This document shows positions 34,762-44,045 of a DNA stretch of 64,000 nucleotides, in pieces; the first letter of the stretch is position 1, and each line of letters begins with the position of its first letter. Both the position numbers and the translations under genes were made by a program. This stretch comes from Escherichia coli (lineage in GTDB: Bacteria > Pseudomonadota > Gammaproteobacteria > Enterobacterales > Enterobacteriaceae), in assembly GCF_016903815.1 (NCBI RefSeq), contig NZ_CP069973.1, one strand, 5' to 3'. Below the pieces are notes generated by a model, which had not been told where the DNA came from, did not search any database, and saw only the letters and a list, made by a program, of their open reading frames with translations.

Positions 34762-35373
<612 letters not shown>

Positions 35374-35756
35374 TTACAGGTACATTCAGTTTCTTTAGTA
35401 AATCGGAAGTAAATAAGATACGTAGCACATATCAATATAGGTTAAACGAGATTAAGTTTTAATTATTTCGATTAGGTTTAAATTTATGTTTTTTTCCTGA
35501 TGAGTGTCAATATGTGAACAGAAAAGGAATTCCATGGTTAAGTCAATATTTACAAAAAATGAAAATATTGCTTTTTTGATAAGAAGAAAAAGACATTCAG
35601 TTTCATAAGGTTATTGGCAATATAACGTTCAATTCTTACTTGCATTTTATATTAGCCAGGAACTTTGCCCTGAGGTGTTAGGAATAGTCTTAATGTGTTG
35701 TGTAATGGACTAGTAAAAAAACAAGTTTAAATGATAAGAAATAGAATATAAAACTA

Positions 35757-35981
35757 TCATGAGTTATAATTAAAGATGATTTTCCAATCAGTAAGGTGTT
35801 TTAATGGATTAACATGCCGCACAAAATGGTTATGGGTGTTCATCCCAATAAGTGATGAAAAATTAAACAGGTGTAAGTACGTCATCTGTCCGGTAAGCCC
35901 CCTAAGAGCCAAATTAAGTGAAGTTAAACGAAGACTGCCAGTTGTCACAGGAACGATGGCCTCTTTGCCAGGGCACTGCAT
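35757..35981 (-). CDS. ykgL: Small hypothetical protein (possible YkgL)
   Basis: 74-aa ORF in the AT-rich region between ecpR and ykgO; called only from position and length. Confidence 0.3.
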   Translation of the reverse strand: MQCPGKEAIVPVTTGSLRLTSLNLALRGLTGQMTYLHLFNFSSLIGMNTHNHFVRHVNPLKHLTDWKIIFNYNS

Positions 35982-36387
35982 TCAGTCATCTGTGCGCGTT
36001 ACTCTAACTGGCACTCGAACGTCGGCGATGGGGTTACCGGTGGATCAGGCCGTTCCTGTGGCGTAAACGTTTTTATGTCAGTACCAACAGATTTACCACA
36101 TTTATCATCTTAACCGTTTGAGTGTAAATGCAGGCTGCGTCGCAAAGGGAGGAAACTGAGTGGCGTGTTCAGTCTAAAAGAGAGTTGATGCCAGCATACA
36201 GGGCGCACCTGGTCAACAAGTCAACATTAATATAATGGAATATTCGGAGAGAAACGTCAGGCAGTTGACCTTAAATGAACAGGAAGATACATCCCCAGGA
36301 AAATTAATGCTGGTGTAATAAATACACCAACATTAATCCGGTCTGATTATTAATCAGACAAATATCGTTAATTCGTCGAATTTTGAA

Positions 36388-36528
36388 TCAACGTTTTTTC
36401 TTACGACCCTGAACGGCCTTAAAACGTGGATTAGATTTACAAATCACATATAGCCGTCCTTTTCGCTTCACAATCTGACAGTCTGGATGGCGTTCTTTTG
36501 CGGTACGCAGAGAGTTAAGGACTTTCAT
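36388..36528 (-). CDS. ykgO: 50S ribosomal protein L36 paralogue (zinc-independent, type B)
   Basis: 46-aa [46 protein letters not shown]; start overlaps the ykgM stop (ATGA arrangement). Confidence 0.85.
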
Positions 36529-36791
36529 CATGCCCCCTTTTTCGTGCTAACAAAACGACCAAAACGTTGGGTGAATCGTGCAACATTTCCTTCTGATGCC
36601 ACTGTTCTCAGCTTCCCTGTATAGAACGGGTGCGATTTAGAAGAGACATCAATTGTCACGTACGGATACGTTACGCCATCCAGCTCAATCTCACGGTCTG
36701 TTTTGATAGTCGAGCCGATTTTAAAGTACTCATCAACACTGGTGTCGTGGAACACCACAGTACGATACTCAGGATGGATATTGGGCTTCAT
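36528..36791 (-). CDS. ykgM: 50S ribosomal protein L31 paralogue (zinc-independent, type B)
   Basis: 87-aa [18 protein letters not shown]…; Zur-box palindrome in its promoter. Confidence 0.85.
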
Positions 36792-36802
36792 CATTTTTAC
36801 CT

Positions 36803-36820
36803 GTTATGTTATAACATAAC
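36803..36820. promoter_or_regulatory. Zur box upstream of ykgM-ykgO
   Basis: Perfect 18-bp palindrome GTTATGTTATAACATAAC, 12 bp upstream of the ykgM start; matches the TGTTATA…TATAACA Zur core. Confidence 0.7.
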
Positions 36821-37103
36821 CATAAAGATACATGCTCATCCGGATCATTTCAACACCCAATCCCTGTGACCATTTGTGGTATGTGGAATTTCGGCAACGG
36901 GGAAGTCTGGCATTGTTAGCAGCCATTGGCGACGCTCCCATAAACGCCTTGATGAGTGATGGTTTCGCTGAGAGTATGAATTTTTCGAGAATGGAGGCTA
37001 TCTCCATTTTACTGGCCGATGATTTATCGCAGTTTGATTGCCGGACAGCGTGTATTCCTCTCCCACGGATATAATAATTACTTACAAAAAAGGGAGAGGA
37101 TGC

Positions 37104-37214
37104 ATATTTTTTAATATCACTGAAGTGAACAGTTTATTGCCGTTATTAATAGAAATGGAGAAATAAATAGGCGTATTCTACAATTGCGACAAAAACAACG
37201 ATATTAATCAGTTT
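37104..37214. repeat. Dispersed ~110-bp repeat, copy B
   Basis: About 88% identical by eye to 17822-17933. Confidence 0.75.
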
Positions 37215-37719
37215 ATGACTGATTTGTTGTACTTTATTCTCTTTCATTGGTACTTCCTCGCTTTAAAAAAGAGTGCACTTCGTAAGTGCCCTTATATAAA
37301 TAACGAGTTTGGTCAACCAATTTTTTGACATGTATCACAAATTTGAATAGATGTATTACATCGGCTATCTTTTATTGCCCCAACGTCATTGATATATGTC
37401 GCCTGAAGTCAGTCCGGGAATGAGTCTGATCTCAAAACTGGCCCAGCCCGGGCGTTGATTGGCGCTGAGGAGCATATCGCATCTCATCATAATGTCGTAT
37501 CTCCTGGGGTGTTATACAAGATATCGTTGTTGGTGACCTGGGAGAGGAATTGAGTTCTATTAAACCGTCAACTATGCCGGATACATACTGGATTACACAG
37601 CAGGCACGCCTTACGAGAGAACGTGCCGCAGTGACGAGTTAATTATCTGAAAGAATTTGCGAGGCTGTATCGGTTACTCATTGGTTTAATAGTTTTACTC
37701 TCGGGAGAGTAATAGATAT

Positions 37720-38862
37720 TTAATCCATTAACGGAAACCAGCCAGTTCCTTTCGATGCCTGAATTTGATCCCATAGTTTATCCGGAATGGTTAATTCAGG
37801 AACAAGTTGTGGATTAAGGGTTGTTTGAATTTCATGGCTTCTACCTGATTCAGCTAAAGTCACCCATTCTGGATTTATCACCAGCCCTTTACCGATCGCA
37901 ACAAGTGGCAGGCCAGCGGAAATTGCTTCTTGAGCCTGAGACGGTGTGCGTATTTTACCTGCAGCGATTACCGGCACTCTGCCTGCAATATGATTTAAAA
38001 TCAATTCAATAGTTCGGGGGCCATTTGGCGACTCAACAGGGTAGCTATCGTTAATACTGACCAGCGAGGTATGTATATACGAAATACCGGATGAAATGAG
38101 TCGATCAAGGAGTTTATAAGTATCCTCTATCCGCAGCCCCCCTGTTACAGATTCTTCAGGAGATATTCTGTAACCGATAGCAAAGCGCTTTGTCGCATAT
38201 TCATAGACTACATTTTTTACTTCCTGTAATACGGCCAGCGGGAAGCGCATACGTCCTTCAAGATCTCCTCCCCATCGGTCATTACGCTGGTTAAATAGAG
38301 GGGAGAAGAAATTCTGCAGAAGGAATCCGTGCGCACCATGAAGTTCAACGCCATCAAAACCTGCTTTAATCGCCCTTTTTGTGACATCTCCGAATGCTCT
38401 AATGGTTTCCTGAATTTCGTTTTCAGTCATTTCCCTGCTTTGTACCACTCTCTTCATAAAGTCACCAGATTTTACGCTTGATGCGCTGGCACTAATAACA
38501 TCGTTATTTGGCACAAGCTCCGGGATGGCTTTATTACCAGCGTGGAAAATCTGCAAAATAGCCGGAGCACCGCCACTTTTGGCTGCAGCTGCTAACTTTT
38601 CAAGGCTGTTAATGAAACGGTCGTCATACGCGGCAAATTCATGAGTAAACCCAATGCCGCTTGGCGTGACATAGGTGCATCCTGTTATTACTAAACCAAC
38701 ATTTTGTGAGCGACGTTTATAAAATTCGAGTTCTTGCTCAGAGATGGTTCCATCAGGATTAGCTGACCAGGTTGTCATAGGAGCCATAACGATACGATTA
38801 CGTAGCTTTATTTTTTCTGTCAGCATAAAAGGAGAAAACAATGATGGGTGTTTATTTGTCAT
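37720..38862 (-). CDS. Old-Yellow-Enzyme family NADH:flavin oxidoreductase
   Basis: 380-aa ORF; N-terminus …LFSPFMLTEKIKLRNRIVMAPMTT… is a typical OYE TIM-barrel start. Confidence 0.8.
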   Translation of the reverse strand: MTNKHPSLFSPFMLTEKIKLRNRIVMAPMTTWSANPDGTISEQELEFYKRRSQNVGLVITGCTYVTPSGIGFTHEFAAYDDRFINSLEKLAAAAKSGGAPAILQIFHAGNKAIPELVPNNDVISASASSVKSGDFMKRVVQSREMTENEIQETIRAFGDVTKRAIKAGFDGVELHGAHGFLLQNFFSPLFNQRNDRWGGDLEGRMRFPLAVLQEVKNVVYEYATKRFAIGYRISPEESVTGGLRIEDTYKLLDRLISSGISYIHTSLVSINDSYPVESPNGPRTIELILNHIAGRVPVIAAGKIRTPSQAQEAISAGLPLVAIGKGLVINPEWVTLAESGRSHEIQTTLNPQLVPELTIPDKLWDQIQASKGTGWFPLMD

Positions 38863-39035
38863 AACAATACCTCAAATGTTTATCTGATTTTAATGCGTAT
38901 AATCTTAATAAGTTGAGTTGCTACTTTTTGATGCTTTTTTTCCTTTAATAGAATTCTTTTTGAGTAATTTTATTATTGTTGTGTAGTCAATAAAGGATAA
39001 ATGTCAGGGAGATAAGGAATCTCCCTGTAAGATTA

Positions 39036-39956
39036 TTACAAATGTGTTTTATAAAAAGGAATTAATTTTTCGAGTGCCTGTTTCACAGGTTCTGGCTTAT
39101 CATACAGGTCGTAATGTGAATAACCTTCAACCACGACCAGCTCTTTATGTTTTGAGGCAGCGCGGCCAATAATTTCGCAGCCGTCACGGTAGGCACCAAA
39201 TGCGCCCACTCTATCGCCCACCACAACCATTATTGGTTGAGTTAACAGGACTTCTGCAAGATGAAATGCATCCCAACCCACGGCAACAGTCTGATGTGAG
39301 AATAGCGAACGATTTACCCCATTAGGTGCACAGCCTCGTGGCGAACGATAATATTCTGTGGCTTCAAAAAGGTCTATTTCTGTTAATCCCGCTTCAAGAG
39401 CTGCATCCGGAGAAGAGGGGAGTAAATCATCTACGCGAAGTTTTGCGCCGTTAGCTTCGTCTGTTCTTTGTTGCGCCATCGCTTCGAGTGCTCCGATAGG
39501 ATTAAACGCTGTAAATCCCTCACGCATAAGACGCCCGTAGTTTGCACCCGTGACAGTACCAATAGCTTTAATTCGACGTTCTGTCATTGCGGCATTAATG
39601 GCATATCCACCTCCACCACAAATACCCAGTACACCAATACGCCCGGCATCAACGTAAGGTAAGGTGGTAAGGTAATCAACGACAATGCTGAAGTCTTTTA
39701 CTCGCATTGTTGGATCTTCCAGATAACGCGGTTCTCCACCGCTGCTTCCCTGAAAACTGGCATCAAAAGCAATGACGATAAAGCCAGCTTTTGCCAGGGC
39801 GGCACCATACACACTACCCGATGTCTGTTCTTTGCAGCTTCCAATTGGATGGGCGCTGATAATGGCAGGATACTTTTTTTCACTATTAAAATCGTCAGGG
39901 AAATAGATATCAGCAGCTATATCCCAGTAAGTATGTTTTATCGAAACAGTTTTCAT
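39036..39956 (-). CDS. Alpha/beta hydrolase (dienelactone-hydrolase-like, Cys nucleophile elbow)
   Basis: 306-aa ORF; GICGGGG elbow; paralogue of the ORF at 19214-20350. Confidence 0.75.
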   Translation of the reverse strand: MKTVSIKHTYWDIAADIYFPDDFNSEKKYPAIISAHPIGSCKEQTSGSVYGAALAKAGFIVIAFDASFQGSSGGEPRYLEDPTMRVKDFSIVVDYLTTLPYVDAGRIGVLGICGGGGYAINAAMTERRIKAIGTVTGANYGRLMREGFTAFNPIGALEAMAQQRTDEANGAKLRVDDLLPSSPDAALEAGLTEIDLFEATEYYRSPRGCAPNGVNRSLFSHQTVAVGWDAFHLAEVLLTQPIMVVVGDRVGAFGAYRDGCEIIGRAASKHKELVVVEGYSHYDLYDKPEPVKQALEKLIPFYKTHL

Positions 39957-40112
39957 TTCAAGCTCCGGGGATTTGCCTAAACAGATTTAAATATCATTTC
40001 TATTATCCGCAACTGGCATTCGTGTTCATATCGAGAACGGCGTAATAGTATGACTTGTATTGGTTATCATCAATGGTCTAATATCTATCACAGTGTTAAG
40101 TTAAGGTTTACA

Positions 40113-41039
40113 ATGATGAAAATAGAGCCTTCAATTTTGCCTTCTCTTGCCTGGTTTGCGCTTATTGTTCGTGCCGGCAGTTTTTCCAGAGCCGCTTCTG
40201 AAATGGGTATTACGCGGGCCGCATTGTCCCAGAATTTAAAATCTCTTGAGGAACGTCTTAACACCAAGCTGATATACCGTACGACCCGCAATATGTCGCT
40301 TACTGAGGAAGGACAGCGTCTGTATGAAGTGCTGGTGTCGGCTTTGGGGCAAATTGATGATGCTTTGAAAGATGTTGGTGATACCCAACTTGAACCTACA
40401 GGCCTGTTGAGAATAAATTCCTCCCGTGTTGCAGCACGGATGCTTGTTGAGCCTCATATTGGCGAGTTTCTTACTCGTTACCCCAAAACAAAGATAGAAC
40501 TCATTATGGATGACGGTTTATCTAACATTATTGCGGACGGCTGTGATGTGGGCATACGTCTTGAGCAAGGACTGGATGAGCATATGACTGCCGTTCCTGT
40601 TTCTCCGCTTATTAAACTGGTTACTGTGGCATCGCCAGATTATTTAAAAGAACACGGTATTCCTGAAACGCCTCAGGAACTGAGTAACCATAATTGCCTT
40701 CGGTTGCGGCATAAAAGTAGCGGTGCACTCTCTGCATGGGAGTTTTCTAATGTTGTGGGGGGTAATGAAGAGTTCGAAATAGAGGTTTCAGGTAAGTATA
40801 TTTCTAATGATGACGAAAGCATGATACGAATGGCGCTGAATGGAACGGGTATCATTCAACATCTGGATTTTGCAATCGCTGAACATATCAATGCGGGCAA
40901 GTTACAGCCGATTCTTGAGGATTGGGCCGTTTCATTTCCTGGATTTTATATATATGTTTCATCACGGGTGAGAATGCCCTCTAAAGTTCGTGCTTTTATT
41001 GATTTTATGGTGGAGAAAAGAGTAAAAATAGAAAGTTAA
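40113..41039 (+). CDS. LysR-family transcriptional regulator
   Basis: Start set at MMKIEPS…; LysR HTH (FSRAASEMGITRAALSQ); divergent from the hydrolase gene. Confidence 0.8.
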   Translation: MMKIEPSILPSLAWFALIVRAGSFSRAASEMGITRAALSQNLKSLEERLNTKLIYRTTRNMSLTEEGQRLYEVLVSALGQIDDALKDVGDTQLEPTGLLRINSSRVAARMLVEPHIGEFLTRYPKTKIELIMDDGLSNIIADGCDVGIRLEQGLDEHMTAVPVSPLIKLVTVASPDYLKEHGIPETPQELSNHNCLRLRHKSSGALSAWEFSNVVGGNEEFEIEVSGKYISNDDESMIRMALNGTGIIQHLDFAIAEHINAGKLQPILEDWAVSFPGFYIYVSSRVRMPSKVRAFIDFMVEKRVKIES

Positions 41040-41121
41040 TGATGTGTGTCAGAATATCGGTAAGAAGAATGGCGCAATCGTGAGGATACGTTTATTCATA
41101 ATAAATCTCCTGAAAGTTTAG

Positions 41122-44045
<2,924 letters not shown>

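Follow-up and report, generated by a model that had tools for sequence, protein, structure and literature searches.

The ykgM-ykgO operon of Escherichia coli: type B ribosomal proteins L31 and L36 and their palindromic Zur operator

The operon and its products

In Escherichia coli, ykgM and ykgO almost certainly form a two-gene operon that zinc-loaded Zur keeps switched off and that codes for the type B paralogues of L31 and L36, two ribosomal proteins. The operon was analysed in a 64-kb stretch of E. coli DNA, below called the window, where its operator is the perfect 18-bp palindrome GTTATGTTATAACATAAC at positions 36803..36820. The Zur switch of ykgMO is already known and belongs to textbook metalloregulation. 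The operon of strain K-12 and its Zur operator were reportedly described by Panina in 2003 and by Hemm in 2010. The preliminary description of this DNA likewise called the switch known biology, and this is a fair statement, as the operon is well studied and both a Zur EMSA and data on zur deletion have been published.

YkgM is the type B (zinc-free) ribosomal protein L31 of 87 amino acids, encoded at 36528..36791 on the minus strand (RefSeq WP_000803998.1), and YkgO is the type B ribosomal protein L36 of 46 amino acids, encoded at 36388..36528 on the same strand (RefSeq WP_000866436.1). The RefSeq coordinates were taken from the annotation of an identical sequence, and the two open reading frames are adjacent on the minus strand. 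The stretch that contains them is common in the species: over bases 36250..37300 of the window, E. coli strain 7/2 and many other genomes are 100% identical to it, and the stretch is present in 5086 of 5426 complete E. coli genomes.

The assignment of both proteins to type B is supported by several resources. YkgM matches the NCBIfam model NF002462 (type B 50S ribosomal protein L31) with 122.8 bits, the cut-off being 86, and stays below the cut-offs of 70 in the generic L31 equivalog models NF000612 and NF001809; its Pfam match is PF01197 (Ribosomal_L31). YkgO reaches 90.9 bits with the type B L36 model NF002021, which has a cut-off of 70, and its Pfam match is PF00444 (Ribosomal_L36). YkgM is nearly identical to chain D7 of the E. 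coli ribosome structure 6i7v, which is L31 type B (E = 2e-42), and YkgO is nearly identical to chain C5 of the same structure, named L36 2. The type B NCBIfam models, Pfam, RefSeq and the 6i7v chains therefore agree with the gene identities that had been read initially.

Zinc ligands of the two paralogues

In the alignment of YkgM with RpmE of K-12, the cysteines C16, C18, C37 and C40 are all replaced, no cysteine is found anywhere in YkgM, and the protein carries a 12-residue insertion relative to RpmE. From this alignment, the loss of the zinc site in L31B is self-evident.

The alignment of YkgO with RpmJ gives a more graded picture, in which C11 corresponds to H14, C14 and C27 are kept as C17 and C30, and H33 is replaced by F36. 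Only the His33 ligand of RpmJ is clearly lost, to Phe36, while two of the cysteines remain and the third position is occupied by a histidine. Because YkgO retains two Cys and a His, the designation “zinc-independent” follows less readily from the sequence for L36B than for L31B.

In experiments with the K-12 sequence, L31B and L36B took the positions of L31 and L36 in the ribosome, and L31B repressed rpmE (PMC9825181, PMC7297116). The role in ribosome remodelling at zinc starvation that was proposed from the window is in line with this published replacement and with the match of both proteins to chains of 6i7v.

The Zur operator

The palindrome at 36803..36820 is built of two 9-nt half-sites and is a site for two Zur dimers. 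It was found at precisely the position where the preliminary description had placed it, with complete 9+9 symmetry, and the 64-kb window contains no other perfect palindrome of at least 14 bp. Dinucleotide shuffles contain on average 0.3 perfect 18-bp palindromes per window, so that the length of 18 bp alone is not decisive, and the significance of the palindrome derives from its position and from its match to the Zur motif.

The site fits the RNNNY skeleton RNNNYRNNRYNNYRNNNY (RxxxYRxxR*YxxYRxxxY), given for the Zur “dimer of dimers” (Gilston 2014). This skeleton is unspecific, with 241 matches in the window versus 268 expected from shuffles. The Zur IUPAC 20-mer TGWNAYRWTATAWYRTNWCA, which has a central TATA, aligns to 36802..36821 with one mismatch, located at an outermost position, and all other sites in the window have three or more mismatches to it. 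The older Zur consensus of 23 bp likewise has its single best match within the window at the palindrome. A comparison with Zur-box motifs, which had been suggested as a check, thus singles out this site as the best one in the window, with one mismatch to the 20-mer of Gilston 2014.

From the -35 hexamer to the ATG of ykgM, the window is identical to K-12, in which the operator has been characterized experimentally. The K-12 L31p operator was bound by Zur in an EMSA with an apparent Kd of 0.025e-18 M2, the tightest of four K-12 operators, and its palindromic score is also the highest of the four; in vivo repression via this operator was 560-fold by RT-PCR (PMC4219657). Binding by Zur in EMSA, on which the initial reading of the palindrome was made to depend, is thus published for the identical K-12 sequence. 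A ykgM-lacZ fusion was induced ~1000-fold by zinc chelation with TPEN or by deletion of zur (PMC7297116), and the operon responds to calprotectin with an induction of more than 1000-fold (PMC12279244). In UPEC, the hlyII promoter has a near-identical box to which Zur binds at least as tightly (PMC5916954). The identity of the operator to that of K-12, the EMSA and the published derepression of 560- to ~1000-fold together uphold the claim that ykgMO is repressed by Zur. The 18-mer is invariant in six E. coli sequences, in which the base 3 nt upstream of it, the -10 hexamer and the leader vary.

It could be argued that the palindrome is a chance product of AT-rich sequence, as the average of 0.3 per shuffled window would allow, or that it serves another regulator of the Fur family, such as Fur itself, since AT-rich inverted repeats are common to Fur and Zur boxes. 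Both are hardly conceivable. The best alignment of the 19-bp Fur consensus GATAATGATAATCATTATC at the site has 9 mismatches out of 19, and more than 1000 other positions in the window match this consensus at least as well as the palindrome does, while the Zur 20-mer and the 23-bp Zur consensus both have their best match in the window here. Binding of Zur has been demonstrated by EMSA for the identical K-12 sequence, and across Proteobacteria the 18-mer is associated with zinc genes, including genes for Fur-family proteins that are likely zur. The site at 36803..36820 is therefore the Zur operator. A Fur box was rejected, as its 9/19 mismatches to GATAATGATAATCATTATC are unremarkable within the window.

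Predicted promoter and leader

A promoter is predicted directly upstream of the palindrome. Its -35 hexamer, TTGAAA at 36848..36853 on the minus strand, is a sigma-70-like match and is the same in K-12 and in four other sampled strains; the predicted -10 hexamer TATCTT lies at 36825..36830 on the minus strand, after a 17-nt spacer, and is TATTTT in one sampled strain. TTGAAA-17-TATCTT agrees with the consensus in 9 of 12 positions and is the only sigma-70-like match in 36150..37150, a region that has fewer such matches than its shuffles. The putative Shine-Dalgarno core of ykgM, AGG at 36800..36802 on the minus strand, was read from the sequence and lies 8 nt before the annotated ATG.

Counted from the predicted -10 hexamer, the palindrome begins 4 nt downstream; it spans the predicted +1 (~36818), and its last base lies 1 nt ahead of the AGG core and 11 nt ahead of the annotated ATG of ykgM. 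It had been described as sitting over the promoter; this holds for the predicted +1, which it covers, but not for the -35 and -10 hexamers, as it begins 4 nt downstream of the latter. As the +1 is a prediction, the placement of the operator relative to it depends on one 9/12 match. Neither a mapped +1 nor the operator sequence was found in PMC4219657, and the promoter architecture is not given in PMC10410751 or PMC12279244. In E. albertii, Moritella and Aliivibrio, A/T-rich -10-like hexamers are seen by eye 4-6 nt upstream of the same box. The footprint of a Zur operator is ~30 bp (PMC4219657), and with the palindrome located just after the predicted -10 such a footprint would span from the -10 to the Shine-Dalgarno sequence.

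Proposed mechanism of regulation

When zinc is sufficient, two Zn-Zur dimers bind the 18-bp palindrome at 36803..36820 cooperatively, as published for the identical K-12 sequence, and Zur placed on the predicted +1 and the short leader would probably exclude RNA polymerase. When zinc falls, Zur gives up its sensing zinc and comes off the operator, upon which transcription of ykgMO rises several-hundred-fold to ~1000-fold. The products L31B and L36B then take over from the zinc-binding L31 and L36 in the ribosome, with L31B also repressing rpmE. The transcript would most likely end at the hairpin 36337..36303.

The operon is of biological importance as a means of sparing zinc when the nutritional immunity of the host sets in. 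In E. coli Nissle, ykgMO is the operon most strongly induced by calprotectin (PMC12279244), and the ykgMO promoter has been used in biosensors of gut inflammation (PMC12279244, PMC10410751).

The operator sequence in other genomes

The exact 18-mer was searched for in one genome per species and was found at 120 loci or more, against about four expected in 298 Gb, an estimate that assumes equal base frequencies. Among the matches listed, nearly all belong to alpha-, beta- and gamma-proteobacteria. The first flanking open reading frames of the 120 loci listed were clustered, and at 89 of these loci at least one neighbour belongs to a zinc-homeostasis family; at the other 31 the neighbours fall outside the families assigned as zinc-related.

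The most frequent neighbours among the 120 loci listed are COG0523 CobW-type GTPases, found beside the 18-mer at 28 loci, followed by Fur-family regulators (14 loci), ZnuC-like ABC ATPases (10 loci), TonB-dependent receptors (9 loci), ZnuA (8 loci) and Peripla_BP_2 binding proteins (7 loci). L31B stands beside the 18-mer at 7 of the listed loci when identified by tblastn and at 6 in the clustering of open reading frames, FolE2 at 6 and ZinT at 4, while L36B directly follows the 18-mer at 2. In other species the box lies 10-36 nt before the start codon of L31B or L36B. The reuse of the unchanged 18-mer before many zinc-regulon genes of alpha-, beta- and gamma-proteobacteria is a mildly useful by-product of the analysis.

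Some genomes, for example those of Moritella sp. JT01, Moritella sp. PE36 and a Burkholderiaceae MAG, contain three to four exact 18-mers before different genes of the zinc regulon. In Morganella psychrotolerans the 18-mer is followed by L36B without L31B, with a gene of the ZinT family just downstream, and in a proteobacterial MAG it is also followed directly by L36B without L31B. In an Acinetobacter MAG the 18-mer precedes L31B, with no L36B behind it.

The position of the palindrome next to the ribosome-binding site raises the question of an additional role in RNA. Transcribed at the 5' end of the mRNA, the palindrome could form a 7-bp hairpin that abuts the Shine-Dalgarno sequence and tunes stability or translation, adding to the repression by Zur; such a hairpin might even be a site of autoregulation by L31B, by analogy with the leader hairpin through which L31 and L31B repress rpmE (PMC9825181, PMC7297116). 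The RNA from 36820 to 36780 does fold into a structure in which the palindrome forms a hairpin (MFE -6.7 kcal/mol, z = -2.08), a stability equalled or exceeded by 7 of 200 shuffles, and the AGG core is only 1 nt past the end of the palindrome. However, folding as RNA is expected of any DNA palindrome and is not independent evidence, and with the predicted +1 (~36818) inside the palindrome the stem would be truncated. Moreover, providing bL31 in trans left ykgM-lacZ unaffected when zur was absent (PMC7297116). Many unrelated genes have the same 18-mer in front of them, and its distance from them varies, which fits an operator in DNA and not an element of the leader RNA. A role of the hairpin in the mRNA is thus quite improbable, and the palindrome is best understood as the DNA operator of Zur.

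The junction of ykgM and ykgO

On the minus strand the junction of the two genes reads ATGATG (36526..36531), with the ykgM stop codon TGA at 36530..36528 and the annotated ykgO start codon ATG at 36528..36526, so that the stop and the start share one base (TGATG, 36530..36526). The preliminary description reported an ATGA stop/start overlap at 36526-36530, and an overlap is indeed present there, but in the annotation it is the 1-nt overlap TGATG and not ATGA. An ATGA would be created only by an alternative in-frame ATG of ykgO at 36531..36529.

Should ykgO begin at 36531..36529, the overlap would be the 4-nt ATGA and the product would have 47 amino acids (MMKVL...), a reading that is considered unlikely. 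The upstream ATG is in frame and occurs in the window as well as in strains 20Ec-P-124 and SCPM-O-B-8794, and a genuine ATGA overlap is found in E. albertii, although there it is formed via the ATG homologous to the annotated ykgO start. It is the second ATG, however, that RefSeq annotates as the start of ykgO, the type B L36 profile begins at residue 2 of the 47-residue form, and the orthologues in Moritella, Enterovibrio and Aliivibrio start with MKVL. Position 36531, which is A in the window, is G in K-12, IAL7255 and O91:H21, where the upstream codon becomes GTG; the change is silent in ykgM. Among exact matches to a 60-mer over the junction, the K-12 version is the commoner one, with at least 2245 records versus at least 529 for the version of the window, both counts being lower bounds because other SNPs share the identity band, as seen in strain 20Ec-P-124. 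Also, the Shine-Dalgarno-like AAGGGGG ends 1 nt before the first ATG of ykgO and 4 nt before the second, a spacing that, as read from the sequence, favours the second. The annotated start at 36528..36526 is therefore retained here.

An extra in-frame ATG is also present in ykgM, at 36794..36792, and is ATA in strain HCM-28C-2. Both genes of the window are thus opened by a tandem in-frame ATGATG (36789..36794 and 36526..36531), and other strains do without the upstream ATG of either gene, that of ykgM being ATA in HCM-28C-2 and that of ykgO being GTG in K-12.

In six species or strains, E. albertii, a divergent E. coli, two Moritella, Enterovibrio and Aliivibrio, the junction of L31B and L36B lies within -4 to +3 nt. 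Its type differs among the other species that have this operator: E. albertii has a true ATGA, Aliivibrio a 1-nt overlap, and Moritella and Enterovibrio have spacers of 1-3 nt. Across these sequences, the tight juxtaposition of L31B and L36B, and not any specific overlap, is the conserved feature. Coupling of ykgO to ykgM by termination and reinitiation would fit such a tight junction, and, given the base shared in TGATG, ribosomes that end ykgM would probably re-initiate on ykgO. It was noted earlier that a knockout of ykgO might alter the expression of ykgM (PMC9825181).

Probable transcription end and ykgL

A probable intrinsic terminator of ykgMO is located at 36303..36337 on the minus strand. 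It has a stem with arms of 15 nt around a loop of 5 nt, and UUUU comes directly after it. The hairpin has a folding energy of -21.1 kcal/mol (z = -7.9), and none of 200 shuffles folds as well. A scan for consensus terminators called none at ykgMO; it missed this hairpin because the hairpin is AU-rich and has a short U run of four. A terminator is drawn after ykgO in Fig. 2A of PMC7297116, and the hairpin 36337..36303 is most likely where transcription of ykgMO ends.

The hairpin sits within the 3' end of ykgL, which is convergent with ykgO (36128..36353, plus strand) and is annotated here as a frameshifted pseudogene. In a published RNA-seq study, calprotectin induced ykgL together with ykgM and ykgO (PMC12279244). 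Instead of expression of ykgL itself, this co-induction could reflect transcription that reads through from ykgMO in antisense.

Comparison with known systems

The operon occupies the same locus as in K-12, likewise with ykgR, ykgL and ecpR as neighbours, and the RefSeq accessions of its YkgM and YkgO are common to many E. coli strains. The differences from K-12 comprise a few silent or flanking SNPs, among them three within the terminator hairpin and the A/G at 36531, by which the junction is ATGATG in the window and GTGATG in K-12. Further differences are the frameshift in ykgL and a segment of ~6.2 kb upstream of ykgR (37812..44044) that is deleted in K-12.

The operators of znuABC, zinT, pliG and UPEC hlyII have the same two-dimer layout RNNNYRNNRYNNYRNNNY with a central TATA, and the hlyII box has 16 consecutive bases, GTTATGTTATAACATA, in common with the ykgM operator. 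Among these E. coli Zur operators, that of ykgM alone is a perfect 18-bp palindrome.

Similar Zur-regulated systems are described in PMC9825181 and PMC13343924 for YtiA/RpmEB of B. subtilis, the alternative ribosomal proteins of Mycobacterium and RpmE2 of Neisseria, where a zinc-free paralogue is derepressed at low zinc and replaces the zinc-binding form. The operator sequences and the operon content of these systems differ between the organisms.

Surroundings of the operon

A 9-bp perfect inverted repeat, TCCTCTCCC and GGGAGAGGA, is found at 37056..37064 and 37092..37100 with 27 nt between the arms. It lies in the intergenic region of ykgR and ykgM, ~46 nt past the ykgR stop codon. A search of 35000..39000 against Rfam at a permissive threshold matched no RNA family, including at this repeat (37056..37100), so that neither a leader element nor an sRNA of a known kind is seen in this region.

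The operon is also present in records labelled as plasmids. The K-12 plasmids of ~214-242 kb among them are probably F-primes that carry the lac-proximal region of the chromosome, and the others are some smaller E. coli plasmids and one record of 4.9 Mb, which is evidently a chromosome. A mobile copy of ykgMO that would be of interest was therefore rejected, the records being F-primes, other E. coli plasmid records and a mislabelled chromosome.

The alignment with K-12 jumps from position 37811 of the window to 44045, and K-12 keeps only a 90-bp remnant, the pseudogene ykgP, of the 6.2-kb segment. In the window this segment contains an intact gene for an NADH-dependent flavin oxidoreductase (37720..38862, minus strand), together with an alpha/beta hydrolase and a LysR-family regulator.
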